Shown: positions 3,367 to 39,802, counted from the stretch's first letter. The stretch: DNA of 64,000 bases from Escherichia coli (GCF_050920415.1 NZ_CP169309.1), one strand, 5' to 3'. The notes: generated by a model not told the origin, from the letters alone. Program-made: numbers and translations.

Positions 3367-4241
3367 TGGCGGAAGTGACACAGTTGAAGCGTTATGACGC
3401 GCGCCCAATTAACTGGGGCAAATGGTTTCTGGTTGGCATCGGGATGCTGGTTTCGGCGTTCATCCTGCTGGTGCCGATGATTTACATTTTCGTGCAGGCA
3501 TTCAGCAAAGGGCTGATGCCGGTGTTACAGAATCTTGCTGACCCGGACATGCTGCACGCTATTTGGCTGACGGTGATGATCGCGCTGATTGCCGTACCGG
3601 TAAACCTGGTGTTCGGTATTCTGCTGGCGTGGCTGGTGACGCGCTTTAACTTCCCCGGACGCCAGTTATTGCTGACGCTGCTGGACATTCCGTTTGCCGT
3701 GTCGCCGGTGGTTGCCGGTCTGGTCTATCTGCTGTTCTACGGCTCTAACGGCCCGCTCGGCAGCTGGCTGGATGAACATAATCTGCAAATTATGTTCTCC
3801 TGGCCGGGAATGGTGCTGGTCACCATCTTCGTGACCTGTCCGTTTGTGGTGCGCGAGCTGGTGCCGGTGATGTTAAGCCAGGGCTGCCAGGAAGACGAAG
3901 CGGCGATTTTGCTTGGCGCGTCTGGCTGGCAGATGTTCCGCCGCGTCACGCTGCCGAACATCCGCTGGGCGCTGCTTTACGGCGTGGTGCTGACCAACGC
4001 CCGCGCGATAGGCGAGTTTGGCGCGGTGTCGGTGGTATCCGGCTCGATTCGCGGCGAAACACTTTCGCTGCCGTTACAGATTGAATTGCTGGAGCAGGAC
4101 TACAACACCGTCGGCTCCTTTACCGCCGCTGCGCTGTTGACGCTGATGGCGATTATCACCCTGTTTTTAAAGAGTATGTTGCAGTGGCGCCTGGAGAATC
4201 AGGAAAAACGCGCGCAACAGGAGGAACATCATGAGCATTGA
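3366..4241 (+). CDS. cysW: sulfate/thiosulfate ABC transporter permease CysW
   Basis: 291-aa membrane permease; start adjoins cysU stop. Confidence 0.95.
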
Positions 4242-5400: not shown

Positions 5401-5437
5401 CCTGTAGGCCTGATAAGACGCGTAAACGTCGCATCAG
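5401..5437. repeat. REP (repetitive extragenic palindromic) element
   Basis: gtaggcctgataagacgcg...cgcatcaggc imperfect palindrome typical of enterobacterial REP, between cysA and cysM. Confidence 0.5.
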
Positions 5438-5462
5438 GCAACACCACGTATGGACAGAGATC

Positions 5463-6374
5463 GTGAGTACATTAGAACAAACAATAGGCAATACGCCTCT
5501 GGTGAAATTACAACGAATGGGGCCGGATAACGGCAGTGAAGTGTGGTTAAAGCTGGAAGGCAATAATCCGGCCGGTTCGGTGAAAGATCGTGCGGCGCTT
5601 TCGATGATCGTCGAGGCGGAAAAGCGCGGGGAAATTAAACCGGGTGATGTGTTAATCGAAGCCACCAGTGGTAACACCGGGATTGCGCTGGCAATGATTG
5701 CCGCGCTAAAAGGCTATCGCATGAAATTGCTGATGCCCGATAACATGAGCCAGGAGCGTCGCGCGGCGATGCGTGCCTACGGTGCGGAGCTAATTCTGGT
5801 CACCAAAGAGCAGGGCATGGAAGGTGCGCGCGATCTGGCGCTAGAGATGGCGAATCGTGGCGAAGGCAAGCTGCTCGATCAGTTTAATAATCCCGATAAT
5901 CCTTATGCGCATTACACCACCACCGGGCCGGAAATCTGGCAGCAAACCGGCGGTCGCATTACCCATTTTGTCTCCAGCATGGGGACGACCGGTACGATTA
6001 CCGGCGTGTCGCGCTTTATGCGCGAGCAATCCAAACCGGTGACCATTGTTGGTCTGCAGCCGGAAGAGGGCAGCAGCATTCCCGGCATTCGTCGCTGGCC
6101 TGAGGAATATCTGCCAGGCATCTTCAACGCTTCGCTGGTGGATGAGGTGCTGGATATTCATCAGCGCGATGCGGAAAACACCATGCGCGAACTGGCAGTG
6201 CGGGAAGGGATTTTCTGCGGTGTAAGTTCCGGCGGCGCGGTTGCCGGAGCACTGCGGGTGGCAAAAGCCAACCCCGGCGCTGTAGTGGTGGCGATCATCT
6301 GCGATCGCGGCGATCGCTACCTTTCTACCGGGGTGTTTGGGGAAGAGCACTTTAGTCAGGGGGCGGGGATTTAA
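5463..6374 (+). CDS. cysM: cysteine synthase B (O-acetylserine sulfhydrylase B)
   Basis: 303 aa, PLP-lysine motif SVKDRAA, probable GTG start; downstream of cysA. Confidence 0.95.
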   Translation: MSTLEQTIGNTPLVKLQRMGPDNGSEVWLKLEGNNPAGSVKDRAALSMIVEAEKRGEIKPGDVLIEATSGNTGIALAMIAALKGYRMKLLMPDNMSQERRAAMRAYGAELILVTKEQGMEGARDLALEMANRGEGKLLDQFNNPDNPYAHYTTTGPEIWQQTGGRITHFVSSMGTTGTITGVSRFMREQSKPVTIVGLQPEEGSSIPGIRRWPEEYLPGIFNASLVDEVLDIHQRDAENTMRELAVREGIFCGVSSGGAVAGALRVAKANPGAVVVAIICDRGDRYLSTGVFGEEHFSQGAGI

Positions 6375-7824: not shown

Positions 7825-8676
7825 ATGAGTAGTTTGTTGTTGTTTAACGATAAGAGCAGGGCATTGCAGGCGGATATCGTCGCCGTGCAGTCGCAGGTAG
7901 TGTACGGCAGCGTAGGCAACAGCATTGCCGTGCCTGCTATCAAACAGAACGGCCTGAATGTCTTTGCCGTGCCGACGGTATTGCTGAGCAATACGCCGCA
8001 TTATGACACTTTCTACGGTGGTGCGATTCCGGACGAATGGTTTAGCGGTTATTTGCGTGCGCTTCAGGAGCGTGATGCGCTGCGCCAGCTGCGCGCTGTC
8101 ACCACGGGCTATATGGGAACGGCATCGCAAATCAAAATCCTTGCCGAGTGGCTGACTGCGCTACGCAAAGACCATCCTGACTTATTGATTATGGTCGATC
8201 CGGTGATTGGCGATATTGATAGCGGAATTTATGTCAAACCTGACCTTCCTGAGGCATACCGACAATATTTACTGCCTCTGGCGCAGGGTATTACGCCCAA
8301 TATCTTTGAGCTGGAAATCCTGACAGGTAAAAATTGCCGCGATCTCGACAGCGCCATTGCTGCCGCAAAAAGTCTGCTTTCAGACACATTAAAGTGGGTG
8401 GTGATTACCAGTGCCTCCGGTAATGAAGAAAATCAGGAGATGCAGGTGGTGGTGGTCAGTGCCGACAGCGTGAATGTCATTTCCCATTCACGGGTTAAAA
8501 CTGACCTGAAAGGGACTGGCGACCTGTTTTGTGCTCAGCTTATCAGTGGCTTGTTGAAAGGTAAGGAATTAACTGACGCGGTACATAGCGCGGGATTACG
8601 CGTGCTGGAGGTGATGCGCTATACCCAGCAGTATGGTAGCGATGAATTGATTTTGCCGCCGCTGACTGAAGCATAA
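7825..8676 (+). CDS. pdxK: pyridoxal/pyridoxine/pyridoxamine kinase PdxK
   Basis: 283 aa, ribokinase-like PdxK family sequence; synteny next to crr. Confidence 0.9.
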
Positions 8677-8678
8677 AA

Positions 8679-8703
8679 AAATGGCGCCGATGGGCGCCAT
8701 TTT
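8679..8703. terminator. bidirectional intrinsic terminator between pdxK and crr
   Basis: aaaaaaatggcgccgatgggcgccattttt: GC-rich hairpin flanked by A-run and T-run. Confidence 0.55.
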
Positions 8704-8718
8704 TCACTGCGGCAAGAA

Positions 8719-9228
8719 TTACTTCTTGATGCGGATAACCGGGGTTTCACCCACAGTCACGCTACCGGACAGTTTGATCAGTTCTTTGATTTCGTCCATG
8801 TTGGAGATAACAACCGGAGTCAGGGTAGACTTGGCTTTCTCTTCCAGCAGCGGCAGATCGAATTCAATCACGGTATCACCAACTTTCACGCGCTGACCTT
8901 CTTCAGCAATACGCTTGAAGCCTTCGCCTTTCAGTTCAACGGTGTCGATACCGAAGTGGACGAACAGTTCAACGCCGCTATCAGATTCGATAGAGAACGC
9001 GTGGTTGGTCTCAAAGATTTTACCAATGGTGCCGTCTACAGGCGCGACCATTTTGTTTCCAGTTGGTTTGATAGCAATGCCATCACCAACGATTTTTTCC
9101 GCAAAAACGACATCCGGCACGTCTTCGATATTGACGATCTCGCCAGAGAGCGGAGCAATGATCTCAATAGTTCCGGTATCCTTCTTGTCGTCGGAAACCA
9201 GAGATTTCAGTTTATCGAACAAACCCAT
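8719..9228 (-). CDS. crr: PTS glucose-specific EIIA component (EIIA-Glc)
   Basis: 169 aa [16 protein letters not shown]... matches Crr as recalled; pts operon context. Confidence 0.97.
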
Positions 9229-9268
9229 GATCTTCTCCTAAGCAGTAAATTGGGCCGCATCTCGTGGA

Positions 9269-10996
9269 TTAGCAGATTGTTTTTTCTTCAATGAACTTGT
9301 TAACCAGCGTCATTAACTCGTCCGTTGTCGGTTGAGCAAGAGCCTGCTCTGCTAACACCTTCGCATCTTCGAAGTTCGTGTTACGGATAATCTTCTTAAT
9401 GCGCGGGATAGAAATGGCGCTCATAGAGAATTCGTCCAGACCCATCCCCAGCAACAGAAGTGTAGCACGTTCATCGCCAGCAAGCTCACCACACATGCCA
9501 GTCCATTTGCCTTCAGCATGAGAAGCATCAATAACTTGCTTGATCAAGTTCAGCACGGACGGTGACATTGGCTGGTAAAGGTGTGAAATCATATCATTAC
9601 CACGGTCAACTGCCAGAGTGTACTGCGTTAAATCATTGGTGCCGATACTAAAGAAATCAACTTCTTTGGCTAAATGACGTGCAATTGTTGCGGCCGCTGG
9701 TGTTTCCACCATTACGCCGATTTCAATTGACTCGTCAAACGCTTTACCTTCGTCGCGCAGTTCCTGTTTGTAGATTTCGATCTCTTTGCGCAGTGCACGC
9801 ACTTCTTCAACAGAGATGATCATCGGGAACATGATGCGCAATTTACCGAAAGCAGAGGCACGCAGGATAGCGCGGAGCTGATCGCGAAGGATCTCTTTAC
9901 GATCCATCGCGATACGGATAGCGCGCCAGCCGAGGAACGGGTTCTCTTCTTTCGGGAAGTTCATGTATGGCAGCTCTTTGTCGCCGCCGATGTCCATGGT
10001 ACGAACGATAACCGCTTGTGAGCCACACGCTTCAGCTACTGCTTTGTAAGCAGCAAACTGTTCTTCTTCAGTGGGCAGCGCGTCGCGGTCCATGAACAGG
10101 AACTCAGTACGATAAAGACCAACGCCTTCAGCGCCGTTACGCTCAGCACCTTCAACGTCACGAACCGTACCGATGTTAGCGCACACTTCTACCTGGTGAC
10201 CGTCCAGCGTAATAGCTGGCAGATCTTTCAGTTTAGCAAGCTCTGCTTTTTCAGAAGCCACTTGCTCCTGAACAGCGCGCATTTTATCAATAACTTCGTT
10301 GGTTGGATTGACGTAAACCTGATTATTTACGGCATCCAGAATCAGATAGTCGTCATTTTTCACCTGAGAGGTGACGCTACCGGTACCCACGATAGCAGGC
10401 AGTTCCAGAGAACGCGCCATGATAGAGGTGTGGGAAGTACGGCCACCCGCGTCGGTGATGAAACCCAGCACCTTCTTCAGGTTCAGCTGTGCGGTTTCGG
10501 ACGGCGTCAGATCAGCGGCAACCAGAATGACTTCATCCTGAATGGCGCTCAGGTCGATAATCTTCAGGCCCAGGATGTTGCGCAGCAGGCGCTTACCGAT
10601 ATCACGTACGTCAGCCGCACGTTCTTTCAGGTATTCATCATCCAGTTCTTCCAGGGCAGAAGCCTGACCTTCGATAACTTCATGAGCAGCTGCGTCAGCT
10701 GTCATGTGCTTATCTTTAATCAGGGCTATGATTTCCTGCTCCAGCTCCTCATCTTCGAGCAGCATAATATGCCCTTCAAAGATGGCTTCTTTTTCTTCAC
10801 CGAACGTTTCACCAGCTTTCGTTTTGATCGTTTCCAGCTGGGCTGATGCCTTGGCACGACCGCTCAGAAAACGTTCAACTTCCTGATCAACCTGGTCGGC
10901 AGAAATTTTTTTCCGGTCAATGACAATTTCGTCTTCTTTCAGAAGCAGAGCTTTACCGAAAGCGATACCCGGGGATGCTAAAATGCCTGAAATCAT
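9269..10996 (-). CDS. ptsI: PTS enzyme I
   Basis: 575 aa [19 protein letters not shown]..., PEP-utilising enzyme family. Confidence 0.97.
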
Positions 10997-11040
10997 AACC
11001 CTACCTTACTTGTGACTGATTTTTAAAAGAACCCGGGAAA

Positions 11041-11298
11041 TTACTCGAGTTCCGCCATCAGTTTAACCAGATGTTCAACCGCTTTCTGTTCGTCTTCGCC
11101 TTCTGCGGAGATAGTCACAACGGTACCTTGAGTCAGGCCCAGAGTCTGCAGTTTAAACAGGCTTTTCGCGCTGGCGCTTTTGCCGTTGGAAGTCACAGTA
11201 ATTTCAGAAGTGAAGCCCTTAGCTTCTTTTACAAACTGGGCAGCAGGGCGGGTGTGCAGACCGTTCGGAGCGGTAATGGTAACTTCTTGCTGGAACAT
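11041..11298 (-). CDS. ptsH: phosphocarrier protein HPr
   Basis: 85 aa [27 protein letters not shown] with active-site His15 context. Confidence 0.97.
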
Positions 11299-11681
11299 TG
11301 TATTTCCCCAACTTATAGGTTTAGTGTTGTGGAACTAAAGTCTAGCCTGGCGGTTCGACTTTAGCCTGTATTGTTAGCGCCAGTTTTTAACAGACGCGAC
11401 GCACGAAGAGCGCAATACAGTCCTTTGCTGGCGGGTGTTGACCGCTGACGTTTCGTACGTCATTAAACATTATGCCGCTAAAGGAAGAATTGAACCAAAT
11501 CATAAAATCGATTCAGCTATGGCTTTTCCTGTAACGATTAATTTCGCGCATCAAAATAATTAGTCTGGTTAAATACCAGTTCCGACAGGCTGAATCAATG
11601 CCAGGAGGGGCGAAAGTTTGAAGCAGGCCACAAAAAAGCACCTGAAAAGGTGCTTTTTTACGCATTTTTAACAAGCTGGCA

Positions 11682-12653
11682 TTACTGTTGCAATTCTTTC
11701 TCAGTGAAGAGATCGGCAAACAATGCGGTGCTTAAATAACGCTCACCCGATGACGGTAGAATAACCACAATATTCTTGTTGGTAAAGCTTTCATCTTCTT
11801 GTAGTTTCAATGCTGCAGCAACAGCCGCTCCAGAAGAGATACCTGCAAGAATACCTTCCTCTTCCATCAGACGACGCGCGGTAGAAATAGCTTCTTCATT
11901 GGTGATGCCAATGACTTTATCGACCAGCTTGAGATCAAGGTTAGCCGGGATAAAACCAGCGCCAATCCCCTGAATTTTATGCGGGCCAGGTTTAATCTCT
12001 TCACCTGCCAGCGCCTGGGCGATAACCGGAGAATCGGTTGGCTCCACGGCGACAGAGATGAGATCGGTCTTGCCTTTGGTGCCTTTAATGTAGCGGCTGA
12101 CGCCGGTCAGCGTACCGCCAGTCCCAACACCAGCAATAAATACATCAACCTGACCGTCGGTATCTTCCCAGATCTCCGGACCGGTGGTTTTTTCGTGAAT
12201 TTCAGGGTTTGCCGGATTGCTGAATTGTTGCAGCAGTAGGTATTTCTCTGGATTGCTGGCGACAATTTCTTCTGCTTTTTGGATTGCGCCTTTCATGCCT
12301 TTAGCACCTTCGGTCAGCACCAGGTTTGCACCTAACGCTTTCAGCAGCTTGCGGCGTTCAATACTCATGGTTTCTGGCATGGTCAGGGTGAGTTTGTAAC
12401 CGCGAGCGGCAGCCACATAGGCCAGTGCAATCCCGGTATTACCGCTGGTTGGTTCAACCAGTTCAACGCCTGGTTTCAGCACGCCGCGCTTTTCGGCATC
12501 CCAAATCATATTGGCACCGATACGGCACTTAACGCTGAAGCTGGGGTTACGAGATTCCACCTTCGCCAGAATGCGTCCGTTACCGATGCGATTCAGGCGA
12601 ACCAGCGGTGTGTGACCGATAGTCAGCGAGTTATCTTCAAAAATCTTACTCAT
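11682..12653 (-). CDS. cysK: cysteine synthase A (O-acetylserine sulfhydrylase A)
   Basis: 323 aa [24 protein letters not shown]...; PLP enzyme; synteny. Confidence 0.97.
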
Positions 12654-23482: not shown

Positions 23483-23552
23483 ATGAGAGGCACGGGAACT
23501 GCCGGACATAGTTGGTCTGATAAGCGAAGCGCATCAGGCAATTTCGCAAATT

Positions 23553-23610
23553 GCAGATAGTAAAAAAGCGCCTTTAGGGCGCTTTTTTACATTGGTGGGT
23601 CGTGCAGGAT
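23553..23610. repeat. terminator palindrome plus 18-nt copy of the tRNA-Lys 3' end (att-like direct repeat, copy 1)
   Basis: gcagatagtaaaaaagcgcctttagggcgcttttttacat followed by tggtgggtcgtgcaggat, identical to the first 18 nt of the lysV complement at 39727. Confidence 0.6.
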
Positions 23611-23707
23611 GACTCGCTTCGCTCGCCCTTCGGGCCGTCGCCGCGAGCGGCTCCGTTGTTTCGCTGCGCTCAACTCGAACCTGCTGCAGGTTCGAATCTT
23701 TGAGTAT

Positions 23708-23765
23708 CGCAGATAGCAAAAAAGCGCCTTTAGGGCGCTTTTTTACATTGGTGGGTCGTGCAGAA
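23708..23765. repeat. second tandem copy of the terminator/att-like repeat (island-proximal boundary)
   Basis: gcagatagcaaaaaagcgcctttagggcgcttttttacat followed by tggtgggtcgtgcag (15 nt of the tRNA-Lys 3' end); near-identical to copy 1, about 155 bp away. Confidence 0.6.
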
Positions 23766-23826
23766 TCCTTATTCAGACTCTAACCTTTTGAAAAATCAAG
23801 AGATATAACACTAACAACCATCACTG

Positions 23827-23927: not shown

Positions 23928-24227
23928 TCAGGAGATCATTAACCCGGATTCACCTTCCACGATCACACCACCATGTTCGGTGGTATCTCCCATACGGGCA
24001 ACGGCTTTACCGTTAATTTTGAGAACCGTTGAACCGGAAACAATAGTGTCTTTGCTACCGCTACCTTTGCAGGTGAGCTTATCACCCACCAACGCCAGCG
24101 GAACACCATTATACGTAACAAAGGTCTGCTGACATTCACTGACCGGGCCACCAATATGTGGGCGGGGGCCGGGATCAACTTTCGGGCAGGTATGGTTATG
24201 TCCTTTGAGTACCACGGCTTTACTCAT
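23928..24227 (-). CDS. PAAR-domain protein (T6SS spike tip)
   Basis: ORF 23928..24317 trimmed to the ATG preceded by AGGAGA: 99 aa MSKAVVLKGHNHTCPKVDPGPRPHIGGPV...GVPLALVGDKL...GKAVARMGDTTEHGG, Gly/Pro-rich PAAR-like repeats; start overlaps the upstream gene stop by ATGA. Confidence 0.7.
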   Translation of the reverse strand: MSKAVVLKGHNHTCPKVDPGPRPHIGGPVSECQQTFVTYNGVPLALVGDKLTCKGSGSKDTIVSGSTVLKINGKAVARMGDTTEHGGVIVEGESGLMIS

Positions 24228-24982
24228 CGTCTGTTCTCCTGCGCAGTTTTTGTGAATATGTCCAGAAGTCGCCAGTAAGCATACTCCTGTTGTCCCAGAT
24301 TCAGGCAACCATACCACCGTGGATGCAGAGGATCATCAAAACAACGAAATCCGTCATAATATTGGGCTACTGCCAGTAGCACTTCGGCCTGTCCGCCGGA
24401 TTCATAGCGGGATAGCGCCCGCCTTGCACTAGCCATCAGTTGTCGGTATATATTTTCATATAGCTCAACTGTTGGCGAAAAAGCCGTTCTTTTTTCCACC
24501 GTATACAGGCGGGTGAAAATCTGACCACTCCCCAGCCAGGCATTGTGATATTGGGGGATAATGCAGTGAGGCGTATCCGGCCCCCAGGAATGTTTATAGT
24601 GTTCACTAAGCCAGTCAACAGACCAGTCATCTTTATGTGCTATCAGGTATGCAGGTATAGTCTCATCTTGCGGGGATGTCTTTGCACTAATGTAGTGTTC
24701 AACAATTTTCTGCAATTCCGTATAGCGGACATCCTCCATAAAAAACGATCCCAGGCACAATCTGGCACTGGCAATATGTATAGCAAGCAATTGATCAGGA
24801 ACTTTTTGAGTCTCAGTCCATTGATAGCTCTGTCTGATTAATTCATCAATAGCGGATGCGGGAAGCTTTCTGTCGGTAATAACCTTACCAAAGCGGTTTA
24901 CCAGCCAGACGCGGCCCTTTTTCAGAAATTCCATCATCCGGTGCTCCGCCAGACTACGGTAAGTTGCTTCTGTTATCCTCAT
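24224..24982 (-). CDS. hypothetical cytoplasmic protein, 252 aa (T6SS operon member; immunity candidate)
   Basis: Intact ORF with GGAGAG RBS about 9 nt upstream of the ATG; no TM segment or signal peptide; position only. Confidence 0.55.
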   Translation of the reverse strand: MRITEATYRSLAEHRMMEFLKKGRVWLVNRFGKVITDRKLPASAIDELIRQSYQWTETQKVPDQLLAIHIASARLCLGSFFMEDVRYTELQKIVEHYISAKTSPQDETIPAYLIAHKDDWSVDWLSEHYKHSWGPDTPHCIIPQYHNAWLGSGQIFTRLYTVEKRTAFSPTVELYENIYRQLMASARRALSRYESGGQAEVLLAVAQYYDGFRCFDDPLHPRWYGCLNLGQQEYAYWRLLDIFTKTAQENRR

Positions 24983-25014
24983 GACTTCAGCCTCTCCCTT
25001 ACGCTATTGCAACA

Positions 25015-34281: not shown

Positions 34282-34616
34282 AGCCTGTACTGGCAATTGT
34301 TCCGGCCTGCGCTTTGCGATCCGTCCTTCCAGAAAATCACTTGCCACCTTTTATGGGTCATTGTATCGTTGCGCCGCGTCTGCAAAATCAGGCGTCGGGA
34401 TTGGTCTCCCGGTTATAACTCGTTGACGGCATATGACATTTCTGTGTCATTTCTGTGCCGTGCGTTCGGCTGCACTTCTATGGTGGGGCCGGGTGGGGGC
34501 GTTGAAAGACGCGCCGGTTCCCAACGAGACCGGTAAGACCAACTCCGTCCGGTTCCACCACCCGTAAGATTGGTCTCTTCAGTGGTGGAAAATATATTCT
34601 CGTTGGAGGCCACATT

Positions 34617-35078
34617 ATGGCTGTTATTTCTGTTCATAAAGACGATTTACTTACCATCCCCTTCAGTGCCGCTACTGATTTCACCGATCTGGCTGCTCAC
34701 TGCGATCGCTTCGCCCAGACCCTGATCGAATGCCACAATCCTGCGCTAAAAATGGCGCTCTGTGGCAGGCTTAATACCTGCCTTGCACTGTTGCGGCCCA
34801 CGCTGAACGAGCCGATCCCGCCGCATCTGATTGACGGTTTTATTACGAATGATTTTCCCGATGTTTCACCCGGTTTTGAACCTGATGCAGAATCACTCTG
34901 CGATTACTGCCTGGCGCTGACACAGATACTGAATGGTCACTCACTGTTACCTGAAACCGAAACCACGCTGACCGGGCTGCTGTGCGAGCTGGTCTGGTAT
35001 TTTGCTGACAGTCTGAAAGCCCCGCACTGGATACGTACCGCTGACGGCGTACAGGTTATCGACGGGAGGCCAGCATGA
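34617..35078 (+). CDS. hypothetical protein, 153 aa, translationally coupled to the Ner-like gene
   Basis: Intact ORF; stop overlaps the next gene start (ATGA); no recognisable domain. Confidence 0.45.
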   Translation: MAVISVHKDDLLTIPFSAATDFTDLAAHCDRFAQTLIECHNPALKMALCGRLNTCLALLRPTLNEPIPPHLIDGFITNDFPDVSPGFEPDAESLCDYCLALTQILNGHSLLPETETTLTGLLCELVWYFADSLKAPHWIRTADGVQVIDGRPA

Positions 35079-35329
35079 TGCAGCCGGACTGGCATCCCGC
35101 TGATATTATCGCGGGACTGAGAAAACGGGGGACATCGCTGGCTAAGGTGTCCCGCAGCGCGGGACTGGCGTCCGCCACGCTGGCAAACGCGTTGACCCGT
35201 TCGTGGCCGCGCGGCGAAAAACTCATTGCGGATGCGCTGGAAACATCACCGGAAATTATCTGGCCCTCCAGATATTTCGATAATCAGGGCAACCGCATTG
35301 TAAGACTTATGCGAGAGCGGCGCTCCTGA
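35075..35329 (+). CDS. Ner/Nlp-family small DNA-binding protein
   Basis: 84 aa; DWHPADIIAGLRKRGTSLAKVSRSAGLASATLANAL resembles the Mu Ner / E. coli Nlp (SfsB) HTH family. Confidence 0.7.
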   Translation: MMQPDWHPADIIAGLRKRGTSLAKVSRSAGLASATLANALTRSWPRGEKLIADALETSPEIIWPSRYFDNQGNRIVRLMRERRS

Positions 35330-35365
35330 TGGCAGAAGCGTCAGATACAAGGTTACGGTAAAATA

Positions 35366-35409
35366 TCTCCCGGCTCTCTGCCTGCTTCTGCTGGCAGAGA
35401 GCCGGGAGA
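35366..35409 (+). terminator. strong stem-loop downstream of the Ner-like gene (17-bp perfect stem, no U-tract)
   Basis: tctcccggctctctgcc / ggcagagagccgggaga inverted repeat with about a 10-nt loop. Confidence 0.4.
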
Positions 35410-36219
35410 AGACAAGCGAAGCGCGGCAGTTTTTCAGTCACGAAGTAAGCAAACAATCTTTTAAACGCAAAAAACGTTTTTTCTTTCTGCGCCAGAAATA
35501 ACGGTGTAATCTCCCTCCTGCACTATGCCTTCGGGCACCCTTTGGCTTCATGGTCTGCAAGAAGCCCCTGATTTATCAGGACGACCAGCCCTTGCTACCG
35601 GTACGACCTCCGCAATACCGGAACGCGAAAGCGTTTGAGGCGAAGTAATTACACACCGGACAGCCCCATCGTCATCGTTTTACCGCAACGGCCTTCACTG
35701 GCTGCAAGGTTTCTCTTTGCCGGAATTTCTCCGGCCTGCTTATCCCCTGCTGATGACCAGCGCCTTTTACATGACGGGCTGCGGCCTGCATTGCCGTCAG
35801 GCTTTGCTGCCGCGTGACCGTTAATCTACCAGACTGTTAATTTTCGAATACTGCACCAGAAACGCAATGTTTACCCCTTGCACCAGACGAGGCGTCACTT
35901 TGATCGCGTCAGCGAAAAAGCAAAGTGACGCCGCACAACTCACCGCCGCAAGCCGCGCCAGTTCTGGCCTGCGCCCTGTTTCCGCCGTCTGACATGCCCT
36001 TTGGGGCCGTTGTCAGCTCAGAGTAAAGGAGAAAAAGATCGATACCGAGGGGGGCACGACGCCCCGGAGACACCCCTGCTTCGTCAGGCAGTCTGTACTG
36101 CGTACAGCCTGAAACTCCCTAAACCTCAACAAACTGCCACTCCGGCGTGAAGGTATCGTTCTGGCGCAGCCAAAAAGCACACGCCGGAGACTGTTTGTTT
36201 TTGTTGTCAGGGGAGAGTC

Positions 36220-37104
36220 ATGAGCAAATTAAGCAGTGAAATGAAGGCGCTGGCGAAGAAAGCGGGCGGCAGCTTCAAAACGGTGAATGATCGTATTCAT
36301 GCCACGAAGCGGTTCAGCCAGCATTTACGCGAACTGAATATCCAGATCCAGCGGGTGGAGCAGATCAAAGTTCGCCATATCGAATGCTACATTCAGGAGC
36401 GGCTGGAGCAGGATATTGGTTTACGCACGCTGCAAAACGAAATGGCGGCGCTGCGCTCCGTACTGAGACTGGCGGGACGCCGACAGGTGGTGGAGCATCC
36501 GCGCCTGACCAATAAGGCGCTGGGGCTGTCAGGCGCTTCGCGCAACGGCACGCGCCGCGCCATTACGCCGGAACATTATGAAAAAGTGATGGAGAGCGCC
36601 CGTGCACAGGATGCGGGGCTGGCGGCAGCGGTGGAGATTGCGCGGCTGATGGGATTACGCTCGCAGGAGGCGGTACAGAGTTCACAGTCGCTGAAAACGT
36701 GGCTGAAAGCCATTTCCCGCGGCGAAACCCGGCTGAAAGTGGTGTTTGGCACCAAAGGCGGGCGTCCACGTTACACAACGATCCTGGACGCTGGTGCAGT
36801 CAGAAAGGCGGTGGAAAACGCGTTACCGATCGCCAGACAGCGCAATGGCAGGCTGATCGACAGGCCTGACCTCAAAACAGCGCTGGAGAGCTGGCACAAA
36901 CAGGCCATTAAGGCGGGACTGAAGGGGGAATTTTCCCCGCACTCACTGCGTTATGCATGGGCACAGGACGCGATCCGTTATTATCTGGCGCAGGGATTCA
37001 GCGAAAAAGAATCCCTGGCGCTGACGGCAACGGATCTGGGCCACGGCGACGGTCGCGGCCGCTGGGTGAAACAGGTGTACGGCTACCGCTGGAAGGAGGA
37101 ATAA
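36220..37104 (+). CDS. tyrosine recombinase (phage integrase family)-like protein, 294 aa
   Basis: Catalytic-residue pattern consistent with tyrosine recombinases: GLRSQEA (box I Arg), HSLRYAWAQ (HxLR), C-terminal VYGYRW (Tyr). Confidence 0.6.
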   Translation: MSKLSSEMKALAKKAGGSFKTVNDRIHATKRFSQHLRELNIQIQRVEQIKVRHIECYIQERLEQDIGLRTLQNEMAALRSVLRLAGRRQVVEHPRLTNKALGLSGASRNGTRRAITPEHYEKVMESARAQDAGLAAAVEIARLMGLRSQEAVQSSQSLKTWLKAISRGETRLKVVFGTKGGRPRYTTILDAGAVRKAVENALPIARQRNGRLIDRPDLKTALESWHKQAIKAGLKGEFSPHSLRYAWAQDAIRYYLAQGFSEKESLALTATDLGHGDGRGRWVKQVYGYRWKEE

Positions 37105-37429
37105 CTGAATTCATGAATGGCGCAAAATAGTACGTTATTGTGTAATGACAGCAATCAGTCTGGCGCAGGGACCGGATGAAATAAAACAACCGGATACCTG
37201 CCGTTATCACTTAACAATATAGTGATAATATTGTTACTGTATGGCGAGTAAATATCAATAACCCAGACCTTCCTGCTTCATCAGTGTGTTTTTCTGGAAT
37301 ATTATAGTGATTACCCCTGTAATCACTCGAAACGTTCCCTATTGATAACAGGTGTTTTAATCGTTTTTACCGATACCACAGGACTGGGAAAATGTTAAAA
37401 TGCCAATTCACCAGAATTTCACATTAATT

Positions 37430-37920
37430 CTGGCGCAGGATTATATCTGAATAATTCTCTCCATGTTTTCCTGCATCCTGTGACATATATTGTATGCTCA
37501 CAGAATGTCTCATGATTTTATAAAAAATGCTGCGACAGTTTTTGACATCATTACCTGCTACATATAGATTAACAATCTTCGGTGCTTCATGTTGTTTTTT
37601 GCACTTTGTGATCATTATCAGGTGGTTAAAATACAATCTGGTGCAGACTGTCATGGCGCATTTCCAAATAAACTGGTTGCGCCAGAAAGGGAAAGGGTCA
37701 TAAAGGTTAAGGGGCAATAAGGGTAACAGCGCCTGACCGGAAAGGGCGGAAAACTAAAGGGCCAGAAACTGGCGCAGTCCTGAGTATTTTAAATCGCAGG
37801 ATGCTGGTGTAGATATCGGCTAATCCGAAATGGTGCAGGATTTTATCTCTGCGTATCTGGTGCGGTTCTTAAAGGTTGCAGGATATATTTTCATGATCAG
37901 GTTGTGGTGCAGATATTTTT
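37430..37920. repeat. array of iteron-like direct repeats (consensus about TGGTGCAGGATnTTATCT)
   Basis: ctggcgcaggattatatctg, tggtgcagactg, cgcaggatgctggtgtagatatcg, ggtgcaggattttatctctg, ggttgcaggatatatttt, ggtgcagatatttttg within about 500 bp of AT-rich ORF-poor DNA. Confidence 0.4.
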
Positions 37921-37972
37921 GCGTATTAATTGTTTTTTCCGTGAAATTATCGCTTATTGATAGATTTCCACC

Positions 37973-37998
37973 TGTTTTGATTTGCATGCAAATCAAAA
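37973..37998. promoter_or_regulatory. perfect 26-bp palindrome (candidate protein-binding site)
   Basis: gttttgatttgcatgcaaatcaaaac is its own reverse complement; a second dyad (aaattattcac-tg-gtgaataattt) lies at about 38045..38068. Confidence 0.4.
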
Positions 37999-38249
37999 CG
38001 GTCAGTTTCCTATTAATAAGGCGTTAATTAATAGGTTTTTACCCAAAATTATTCACTGGTGAATAATTTCGTACTATTTCCAATTAATAATAACAAACAC
38101 AATGGCAATACCTCTCAATACAAAAAAGCAGATCCCCGTCAATCAGGATCTGCTTTTCCATTTTTACAGAATTACATTATTTCTGACTCAGGCAGGCCTG
38201 TGTCACCAGGTATGGCTGATAACGGCTATTTCTGTTGCCATATGGAGCA

Positions 38250-39461
38250 CTATATTGCCCTTACAGTCACAGATGCCTCACTGATCTTCTGCCCCCACCA
38301 ATTCATCAGTTCCACACGCTGAACCAGGTAAACTGCGCGGTTGTAGGCAACACGTGTTGGATTTTCATCAATATGTGACAAAACTGCTTCCACCGCATCC
38401 GGCATAAATCCGGCTTCATGCAGCGCCGTACTGCCCAGCGCGCGGAAACCATGTGAAACCAACTCGCCGCCGTAACCCATCCGCCATAATGCCTTGTTGA
38501 CCGTCTCACTGTGCATTGGCTGGCTGCGTTTAACCCTGCCGGGAAAGACATACAGCGAATGCTCACTTAATGGCTTAAGCTGCGCCAATACCGACATTGC
38601 CTGTGGTGACAGTGGCACCTGGTGCTCACGCTTCATCTTCATGCGTTCAGCCGGGATAGTCCAGAGCCGTTTATCCATATCAATCTCACACCACATCGTT
38701 CCTGCGGCCTCAGCAGGGCGTACCAGGGTCAGGAGTTGCCATTGCAGCAATAACCGCGTCATGGGGCTTAAACAGGTTGTGTGGACCCGCTGCATGAGTT
38801 CCGGCAGACGCTCCGGGCGAATGGTCGGCATATGCTGCTTTTTCGGCTTCACGAATGCTTCATCAATGGTTGACGCCGGGTTTGCATCCAGCAGGCCTGT
38901 ATTAATGGCGAATTTCATGACCTCATTAATTCGCTGCGTCAGCCGGTGCAACGTCTCCAGCGTGCCACGCGCCCGTACAGGCTCCAGGGCGGAAATAAGC
39001 GTGTGCGCTTTCAGTTCTGTCACTGGCATCTGCCCAATGGCCGGGAACACATCGCGCTCCAGCGATCTCCAGATATCGTCTGCATAATCTTCGGAGATTC
39101 TGGTTTTCTTCACCGCGAACCATCTCGTCGCCACATTAATAAACAGGCTCTCCACCGCCAGCCGCTCCCGTTCGGCTTCCTCCTGCTCCAGTTTCTTTGG
39201 GTCAATACCTTTCACAAGCAGGGAAAGCTGTTCGGCGTGTAATGCGCGTGCGCTGGCAAGCGACATGGCAGGATAATGCCCGAGAGTGATGGTGGTTCGC
39301 GCAGTCGAATTTGGCCGTTTGTAACGAAAACGCCAGATCTTTTTACCGCTGGTTCTGACAAACAGGGTCAGCCCCTGCCCGTCAAACAGTTCGTAATCTT
39401 TATCAGAGGGTTTTGCTTTCTGGACTTCGCAAGCTGATAACGGACGGGTAAGAACAGCCAT
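38250..39461 (-). CDS. int: P4-type (tRNA-associated) tyrosine integrase
   Basis: 403 aa; N-terminal LSACEVQKAKPSDKDYELFDGQGLTLFV... block typical of P4-like integrases; gene ends 265 bp from the 3' end of tRNA-Lys. Confidence 0.9.
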   Translation of the reverse strand: MAVLTRPLSACEVQKAKPSDKDYELFDGQGLTLFVRTSGKKIWRFRYKRPNSTARTTITLGHYPAMSLASARALHAEQLSLLVKGIDPKKLEQEEAERERLAVESLFINVATRWFAVKKTRISEDYADDIWRSLERDVFPAIGQMPVTELKAHTLISALEPVRARGTLETLHRLTQRINEVMKFAINTGLLDANPASTIDEAFVKPKKQHMPTIRPERLPELMQRVHTTCLSPMTRLLLQWQLLTLVRPAEAAGTMWCEIDMDKRLWTIPAERMKMKREHQVPLSPQAMSVLAQLKPLSEHSLYVFPGRVKRSQPMHSETVNKALWRMGYGGELVSHGFRALGSTALHEAGFMPDAVEAVLSHIDENPTRVAYNRAVYLVQRVELMNWWGQKISEASVTVRAI

Positions 39462-39726: not shown

Positions 39727-39802
39727 TGGTGGGTCGTGCAGGATTCGAACCTGCGACCAATTGATTAAAAGTCAACTGCTCTACCAACTGAGCTAACGAC
39801 CC
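39727..39802 (-). tRNA. lysV: tRNA-Lys (anticodon UUU)
   Basis: Reverse complement reads GGGTCGTTAGCTCAGTTGGTAGAGCAGTTGACTTTTAATCAATTGGTCGCAGGTTCGAATCCTGCACGACCCACCA. Confidence 0.95.

Follow-up and report, generated by a model that had tools for sequence, protein, structure and literature searches.

The window (the whole stretch of DNA analysed, 64,000 nt from Escherichia coli, NZ_CP169309.1) contains a genomic island that extends from a 3′-end direct repeat of tRNA-Lys at about 23750-23768 to the tRNA-Lys gene lysV, where the matching repeat lies at 39727-39746. The island's genes encode, in order, PAAR, four unknown proteins, DUF4123, VgrG, TssF, TssG, a 153-amino acid (aa) protein, a Ner-like helix-turn-helix protein, a 294-aa protein and a P4-type integrase. 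The subject here is the gene for the 294-aa protein (36220-37104, plus strand), which starts with ATG behind a purine-rich ribosome-binding region, GGGGAGAG, and is preceded by a copy of the RNA motif EFASI (Table 1). The recombinase gene and EFASI together form a portable backbone module of islands that carry a P4-type integrase and lie at tRNA or transfer-messenger RNA (tmRNA) genes in Enterobacterales, and the module is also found on plasmids.

The 294-aa protein and its catalytic residues

A first-pass annotation, made from the sequence alone, had noticed a recombinase-like residue pattern in this protein, and a search with phage-integrase profiles is strongly positive. In particular, Pfam family PF12835 (Integrase_1) matches over model positions 1-149 of 149 with 199.5 bits against a cut-off of 23 (E = 3.4e-59), and PF12834 (Phage_int_SAM_2) over positions 1-91 of 91 with 137.4 bits against a cut-off of 22 (E = 2.5e-40). 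The gene is almost certainly a member of the bacterial Integrase_1/Phage_int_SAM_2 family of tyrosine recombinases, for which public data hold about 750 representative clusters. One study lists PF12835 among the branches of the DNA breaking-rejoining superfamily that are specific to bacteria (PMC8371274). Other resources are less specific; PGAP names the product 'integrase domain-containing protein' (WP_000041050.1), an older database name is 'DNA-binding protein', and the PHROGs matches are to generic 'integrase' only. By profile search, the 403-aa integrase next to it has the Arm-DNA-bind_3 and Phage_int_M domains, and the 294-aa protein has neither. Nor is the 294-aa protein an orthologue of Xer, because its scores against the XerC and XerD equivalog models are only about a tenth of the cut-offs (30.8 bits against 335.15 for TIGR02224; 22 bits against 329.6 for TIGR02225).

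The residue pattern is present in full, with GLRSQEA at residues 145-151 (containing R147), HSLRY at 241-245 (containing H241 and R244), and Tyr287 and Tyr289 near the C-terminus. The predicted catalytic set, in superfamily order, is R147, K179, H241, R244, H275 and Y287. Across 65 diverse full-length homologues with 32-48% identity, R244, H275 and the C-terminal Y287 never vary, conservation of R147, K179 and H241 is 90% or higher, and all six residues are invariant in a 17-sequence set. The P4-type integrase of the same island has the same residue order, with a profile alignment between the two proteins that is not significant. In a comparison with Cre, R147 aligned with Cre R173, at marginal similarity and in an alignment that reached only the N-terminal domain up to R147.

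The AlphaFold model calculated from the alignment of 65 homologues has a pLDDT of 96, and fold comparison confirmed the tyrosine-recombinase fold, together with its two-domain layout. For the catalytic domain, neither the single sequence nor the family profile found a usable match among solved structures, and only fold comparison succeeded; the family is thus a distant branch. Between Escherichia copies of the gene, dN/dS is 0.09-0.17, and the gene is under purifying selection. Overall, these results describe a simple tyrosine recombinase that is intact, kept by selection and probably competent for catalysis.

EFASI and the leader of the recombinase gene

One genome per species was scanned with the 17-sequence alignment, which yielded 80 loci from other Enterobacterales, and EFASI was located in them using a covariance model made from eight copies. 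Every locus with upstream DNA has exactly one EFASI, on the gene's strand and at a median of 82 nt before the ATG, and no copy was found away from the recombinase gene in 1.47 Mb. EFASI also precedes plasmid-borne recombinase copies at 46-50% identity, and it is not found before homologues at 35-40% identity. The structure of the motif is well supported by its 80 copies, where 97.2% of cells are paired, compared with about 40% when the partners are slid, and where double changes occur in 21 of 36 pairs.

Moreover, the motif has an additional long-range helix outside the Rfam model, formed between its 3′ linker (consensus CYCYGGCGY) and a partner (RCGCCRGRG) that lies 17-40 nt past the Rfam boundary. 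The two strands are perfect 10-nt complements in the window and retain at least nine of ten Watson-Crick pairs in 70 of the 80 loci; three positions co-vary, and four of the six singleton variants of linker or partner gain a G-U pair. This predicted helix is a pseudoknot or an alternative pairing, and it is directed towards the recombinase ribosome-binding site. At its other edge, EFASI abuts a conserved Shine-Dalgarno-like box whose AAGGAG core is followed, at the first bases of EFASI, by ATG, TTG, GTG or CTG in 68 of 78 loci. The frame that would begin there has 2 to 83 codons across loci, or is fused in frame with the recombinase; given these lengths, and the missing start codon in the window's clade, a conserved peptide through EFASI was rejected.

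The Rfam text, as quoted in PMC12370729, expands the name EFASI to 'Enterobacteriaceae, Frequently Around STAXI and Integrases', places the motif upstream of integrases and downstream of STAXI, and gives its function as unknown and likely that of a trans-acting small RNA (sRNA). No mention of EFASI was found in Weinberg 2017. A cis-acting leader is favoured over a trans-acting sRNA because of the one-to-one linkage, the extra helix and the Shine-Dalgarno-like box, and it is fairly probable that EFASI acts in cis as a translational-control leader of the recombinase mRNA. Another possibility is that EFASI is a functional partner of the recombinase, either as an RNA that binds the enzyme and helps to choose or assemble its DNA sites, loosely like the IS110 bridge RNAs, or as a folded single-stranded DNA substrate, like attC for integron integrases. 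This idea is compatible with the strict linkage at a fixed distance on the same strand and with the invariant single-stranded segments in a co-varying scaffold, and the resemblance of the common EFASI linker, CTCTGGCGCA, to a scattered 9-nt motif, TCTGGCGCAG, would fit it as well; nonetheless, it is considered very improbable.

Distribution of the module

The 80 loci come from Escherichia, Citrobacter, Klebsiella, Salmonella, Serratia, Brenneria, Pectobacterium, Dickeya, Erwinia, Yersinia pestis, Photorhabdus, Xenorhabdus and others, and several of the genomes carry more than one copy, six or more of them in Citrobacter youngae ATCC 29220. The recombinase gene was matched in 520 to 577 of 5426 complete E. 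coli genomes, depending on the search, and on the chromosome every time. A P4-type integrase is present in 58 of the 80 loci (within 5 kb in 49), and a Ner-like gene lies within 3.5 kb of the recombinase in 53. Module-bearing islands are inserted at tRNA-Asn, tRNA-Phe, tRNA-Leu, tRNA-Lys and tmRNA genes, and the variable cargo near the module includes type VI secretion system (T6SS) or VgrG genes, Rhs, Kiwa, a methyltransferase with a DUF87 ATPase, and a retron.

The first-pass annotation had proposed that two recombinases suggest a composite island. Instead, the pair is a family trait and no evidence of an island fusion, because pairing with a P4-type integrase is the norm. For example, the copy in strain 730V1 has 90.9% DNA identity; it belongs to an Rhs island inserted at an Asn-tRNA gene and adjoins a different P4-type integrase (420 aa by its annotated length, compared with 403 here). 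This strain shares the whole module and its non-coding flanks (34359-38193) with the window at 72-85% DNA identity. In another Escherichia species (locus L056), the same architecture of T6SS genes, module and integrase is found. Further, locus L008 pairs a recombinase copy that is 94% identical to that of the window with an adjacent P4-type integrase that is only 35% identical; the sequences therefore suggest that the specificity of the recombinase is independent of the neighbouring integrase.

Several individual loci have additional features. A retron msr RNA lies directly 3′ of the recombinase gene in a Lonsdalea locus (L035, 11205-11270), Kiwa (KwaA/KwaB), a methyltransferase and a DUF87 ATPase lie beside the module in Salmonella (L088, 7471-13635), and an AbiEii toxin with AAA ATPases does so in E. 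coli (L089, 403-5258); the cargo of these three loci is anti-phage defence. Locus L089 also has tandem islands at one site (7840-12384), where the end of a CP4-like island (DUF4942, CbtA/CbeA, RadC) comes directly after a frameshifted P4-type integrase. The window is 100% identical to the chromosome of E. coli MFDS1022581, and a second place that matches the recombinase region occurs outside the window in this chromosome (NZ_CP169399.1), which gives at least two copies in the strain. The paper on the EARL island makes no mention of a second recombinase.

Conserved flanking DNA and a nine-nucleotide motif

The module is flanked by conserved non-coding DNA on both sides (Table 1). In loci L035, L047, L057, L064, L069, L091 and L092, the position equivalent to the region before EFASI is held by STAXI or radC motifs, which occur there in Yersinia, Photorhabdus, Xenorhabdus, Lonsdalea, Pectobacterium and plasmids; in the window, STAXI (RF01728) has no match even at E-values up to 1. 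According to PMC2864571, STAXI occurs in the neighbourhood of 'XerDC integrase' genes and c4 antisense RNAs. On a Pantoea plasmid (L091), STAXI is found both before and after the recombinase (3616-3765 and 5406-5558), ahead of successive small genes, where it behaves like a repeated intergenic element of the gene block.

The element that follows the recombinase gene has a core (37660-37830) in which TTGCGCCAG and AAAGGG-type repeats around the invariant TAAGGGTAACAGCGCC are followed by CTGGCGCAG and then CTGGYGCAG. Two large, imperfect AT-rich palindromes, at 37953-38020 (34-nt arms) and 38027-38088 (30-nt arms), lie shortly before the 3′ end of the gene for the P4-type integrase, in sequence that is conserved between genera. 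Where 2-7 kb of cargo has been inserted after the recombinase, the element remains beside the 3′ end of the integrase. A structured RNA in this element was considered and rejected, given a covariation term of -0.66 kcal/mol and paired columns without any variation. The element may be an array of sites for protein binding.

CTGGYGCAG, the 9-nt motif, has 15 copies in the window, where 1.4 are expected, and nine of them lie within 35487-37777. Across the 80 loci it is enriched 10- to 18-fold, on the minus strand upstream of EFASI and on the plus strand at and after EFASI. Only non-coding copies carry weight, because CTG-GCG-CAG is a run of three preferred codons, and these copies are candidate protein-binding sites as well. 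Homology between E. coli islands tends to start or stop at the copies at 35483, 35851, 37783 and 37865. The segment 35483-35860 was evaluated as an independent 370-bp element and rejected, since it always precedes a more divergent copy of the recombinase gene. Elsewhere in the island, a divergent CTGGCGCAG pair at 30663 (minus) and 31469 (plus) brackets the vgrG-tssF intergenic region; it may be a codon-usage coincidence, because both copies lie inside coding sequence. The first-pass annotation had spoken of an adjacent repeat-rich region. Tandem Repeats Finder detected no tandem repeats in 35300-38300, but dispersed CTGGYGCAG copies, purine-rich AAAGGG-type repeats and the two large palindromes are present, and the description is only partly right.

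Proposed role of the recombinase and its alternatives

In 23 of the 80 loci, a same-strand replication gene lies within 3 kb downstream of the recombinase and encodes either a primase-helicase (Zn_Ribbon_Prim, Toprim_3 and AAA_25) or an AAA_25 protein; these recombinase copies form a clade at 54-61% identity. For example, a Pectobacterium locus (L047) has a P4 Ash-family gene and an isrK/C4 RNA immunity module between the recombinase and the replication gene, in contrast to the window, where the isrK/C4 module lies upstream and heads the orf153-Ner operon. On an 8-kb Caballeronia plasmid, a homologue is located beside a ParA-like ATPase, the replication initiator Rep and HigBA, and on a Pantoea plasmid a recombinase copy with STAXI on either side is 3.5 kb from Rep. 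In other loci, the same RNA immunity arrangement as in the window precedes an Ash and primase-helicase operon, which suggests that the backbone of the window's island derives from a P4-like replicating element.

Simple tyrosine recombinases that are kept next to replication or partition functions are mostly multimer-resolution or cyclisation enzymes, as in the Cre-loxP system of phage P1 and the ResD-rfsF system of plasmid F, which keep these episomes monomeric. Because relatives of the 294-aa protein adjoin replication and partition genes, and because of the Cre-loxP and ResD-rfsF precedent, a maintenance role is favoured; by this analogy, the recombinase may be a Cre/ResD-like resolution or maintenance enzyme, an assignment that is put forward tentatively. 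The first-pass annotation had raised a resolvase, which would be compatible with these contexts. In the proposed mechanism, Tyr287 would cleave DNA, assisted by R147, K179, H241, R244 and H275, at a simple site inside the recombinase's own module, and the recombinase would resolve or monomerise the element when it is episomal or in tandem. More complete versions of the element would carry the recombinase beside a C4-RNA-controlled Ash and primase-helicase operon, or beside plasmid rep/par genes, and the window's island would be a reduced derivative that has lost its replication genes and kept the recombinase under selection. EFASI would be the structured 5′ leader of the recombinase mRNA, and translation would be controlled through the upstream ribosome-loading site and the long-range helix beside the ribosome-binding site. 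Taken as a whole, the best explanation, which is an intact recombinase in an EFASI-led backbone module with a Cre/ResD-like maintenance role and EFASI-controlled translation, is plausible, with the balance of probability just short of level.

Several observations count against this explanation. At the level of the protein, PF00589 (Phage_integrase) scores marginally under its cut-off, and its alignment, which includes the R147-R244 span, ends at residue 250 and leaves the region of the catalytic tyrosine uncovered; the spacing from H275 to Y287 is 12 residues, compared with roughly 9 between histidine and tyrosine in Cre, lambda Int and XerD; and a literature search found no experimental or functional paper on the Integrase_1/Phage_int_SAM_2 family. 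At the level of the island, no replication gene is found among its annotated genes and profile matches, and a resolution role here would therefore either act on tandem or excised copies or be a remnant, although selection on the gene is clear. Repeat searches for a recombination site gave the dispersed 9-nt motif copies and the large AT-rich palindromes, with no canonical inverted arms of 11-14 bp around a 6-8 bp spacer. At the level of the leader, the window's clade has AAA in place of the upstream start codon after the Shine-Dalgarno-like box, a simple scan found no promoter-like site directly upstream of EFASI, and the quoted Rfam text favours a trans-acting sRNA.

Other explanations were weighed using the same observations. 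The first-pass annotation had also raised an invertase, and a site-specific invertase or shufflon-type recombinase that flips the DNA between inverted CTGGYGCAG copies flanking EFASI and the gene would be consistent with the change of motif strand at EFASI, with the differences between islands in how the module is oriented relative to the P4-type integrase, and with the left motif of the downstream element, whose position is the same in different loci but whose orientation can be either. However, both module orientations occur between distant islands and not between close relatives, the preferred codons make in-gene motif copies weak evidence, and, among the matches listed from the 577 E. coli genomes, all are collinear with no opposite-strand pieces, which leaves the invertase without support and makes it unlikely. 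It is quite improbable that the protein is the integrase of a second mobile element within a composite island, or one that serves an alternative integration site: although the gene is complete and has its own conserved flanks, inter-island homology starts and ends near the four motif copies, and tandem islands do occur (L089), the pairing with a P4-type integrase is the rule, the module is not bounded by direct repeats or a target duplication, the protein is without an arm-binding domain, and the combined T6SS and module architecture is conserved in the other Escherichia species (L056).

A catalytically silent DNA-binding regulator with a recombinase fold, like MrpR, YopR and SroF of the SPbeta group, could instead bind the motif arrays to control island genes. 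These three repressors are among the fold matches, the older name of the protein is in keeping with such a function, and short-motif arrays surround the gene, with a further pair flanking the vgrG-tssF divergent region; yet the catalytic set is conserved and the three repressors match less well than active enzymes, so that a silent regulator is hardly probable. The invertase, the second integrase and the silent regulator are all less favoured because each fails a test made here. The recombinase might also be an establishment-phase enzyme, made soon after entry of the element and acting on incoming or single-stranded DNA by recircularisation or in a relaxase-like manner. STAXI, which precedes the gene in Yersinia, Photorhabdus, Xenorhabdus, Pectobacterium and plasmids, has been found near ssb, topoisomerase, anti-restriction and integrase genes, and a role in single-stranded DNA was considered for it (PMC2864571); in addition, a TraG_N gene follows one recombinase copy. 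But the authors of the STAXI study judged an RNA to be more likely, from its UUCG tetraloops (PMC2864571), the window has no detected STAXI, and no relaxase or oriT features were identified in the window, and an establishment-phase enzyme is accordingly held to be unlikely too.

Comparison with known systems

The 294-aa protein is a full member of the Integrase_1 (PF12835)/Phage_int_SAM_2 (PF12834) family and differs from it in nothing, and likewise the window's EFASI copy is a clear member of its motif, with STAXI itself absent. Compared with Cre-loxP and ResD-rfsF, the preferred analogues for a maintenance role, no lox- or rfsF-like site was found, the sequence similarity is marginal, the window's island is without a replicon, and the EFASI leader has no counterpart; the replicon or partition context of such episome-resolution systems is seen in relatives (the 23 loci and the plasmid copies) and not in the window's island. 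XerC and XerD are similar in size and domain layout and give weak profile matches, but the family of the 294-aa protein rides on mobile islands, with up to six or more copies per genome. In the TnpI-IRS system of Tn4430 and Tn5401, a small tyrosine recombinase without an arm-binding domain is encoded next to many copies of a single short binding motif, some direct and some inverted. The window likewise has a small arm-less recombinase gene beside a short-motif array, to which binding by the 294-aa protein is putative, but its island has no transposase and no transposon ends.

With integron-like systems of the attC-cassette type, the module shares the fold and the arrangement of a recombinase gene with an adjoining specialised structured site and variable cargo nearby. 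It differs in that no attC-like cassette array was found and the cargo is without a recognisable repeated boundary site; the sequence identity of 13% is that of all tyrosine recombinases. The nearest likeness for the leader is repZ of ColIb-P9, which is controlled by a leader peptide and a pseudoknot (Rfam PK-repZ). Both have an upstream ribosome-loading site, a structured leader and a long-range helix to the segment before the ribosome-binding site of the regulated gene; in the EFASI leader, however, no antisense RNA was identified, the length of the upstream frame is unconserved, and the window's clade has no start codon for this frame.

The family in Pfam, the name of the gene in PGAP and the association of EFASI with integrases in Rfam are already catalogued. 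The quantified one-to-one EFASI link, the extra helix, the ribosome-loading box, the conserved flanking arrays and the link to replication modules are new. The module is present in about one in ten complete E. coli genomes and in many Enterobacterales, including Y. pestis, Salmonella, Pectobacterium and Photorhabdus, and the islands that bear it deliver T6SS effectors, Rhs toxins and anti-phage defence systems; the role of the second recombinase would explain how such islands are maintained or reshuffled. EFASI was previously without a proposed mechanism, and its one-to-one link, helix and ribosome-loading box now make it a testable translational-control leader.

Features of the host island

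The first-pass annotation had recognised the island's P4-type integrase, and this assignment is confirmed by a score of 521 bits against NF007246 and by its Arm-DNA-bind_3, Phage_int_M and Phage_integrase domains; the gene lies next to tRNA-Lys. The coordinates of the module and its neighbours are listed in Table 1.

Table 1. Features of the recombinase module and of the surrounding island (window coordinates).
Feature	Position	Strand	Remarks
P1/P4-type RNA immunity module (a1/b1 targets or isrK-like, then C4 antisense RNA)	34363-34565	+	Rfam matches
orf153, no family match	34617-35078	+	upstream of the recombinase in many loci
Ner-like winged-helix gene (HTH_35)	35075-35329	+	upstream of the recombinase in many loci
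Conserved non-coding region before EFASI (620 nt)	35410-36033	+	nhmmer matches across genera; minus-strand motif copies at 35487 and 35851
Shine-Dalgarno-like box AAAGGAGAA	36025-36033	+	conserved; abuts the 5′ edge of EFASI; core AAGGAG
EFASI RNA motif (Rfam RF02957)	36034-36162	+	99.2 bits against a gathering score of 51.2; ends 57 nt before the start codon
Extra long-range helix outside RF02957 (predicted)	36140-36189	+	linker CTCCGGCGTG (36140-36149) pairs with CACGCCGGAG (36180-36189)
294-aa 'simple' tyrosine recombinase gene	36220-37104	+	core-binding domain, residues ~1-91; catalytic domain, ~102-290
CTGGYGCAG copies in AT-rich non-coding DNA	37160, 37430, 37638, 37769	+	degenerate copies to ~37910; inverted copy at 37677
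Conserved element in the non-coding DNA that separates the recombinase stop codon from the 3′ end of the P4-type integrase	37635-38213	+	conserved in up to ~30 loci
P4-type (arm-binding) tyrosine integrase, 403 aa	38250-39461	-	convergent with the 294-aa gene
tRNA-Lys (lysV), integration site	39727-39802	-	3′-end repeat at ~23750-23768; further copy at ~23594-23612

Within the RNA immunity module, C4 (68.1 bits) and isrK (53.2 bits) score above their gathering thresholds and c4-a1b1 scores 43.1 bits, below its threshold of 46.7. A promoter scan places a promoter-like site at 34341-34369, at this module, which heads the operon of orf153 and the Ner-like gene, and a strong hairpin (35366-35409) follows the Ner-like gene. 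In PADLOC, the recombinase, orf153, the Ner-like protein and the four unknown proteins of the T6SS cargo had no match to a defence system. These four are encoded consecutively on the minus strand between DUF4123 and PAAR (24224-28306), have no Pfam match either, and are by position candidate T6SS effector and immunity genes. At the far end of the island (23550-23770), a 156-bp duplication overlaps an Rfam RtT match (23593-23718, minus strand); each of its copies contains a palindrome resembling a terminator, together with the final ~19 nt of tRNA-Lys, and the island therefore has two candidate att repeats at this end.

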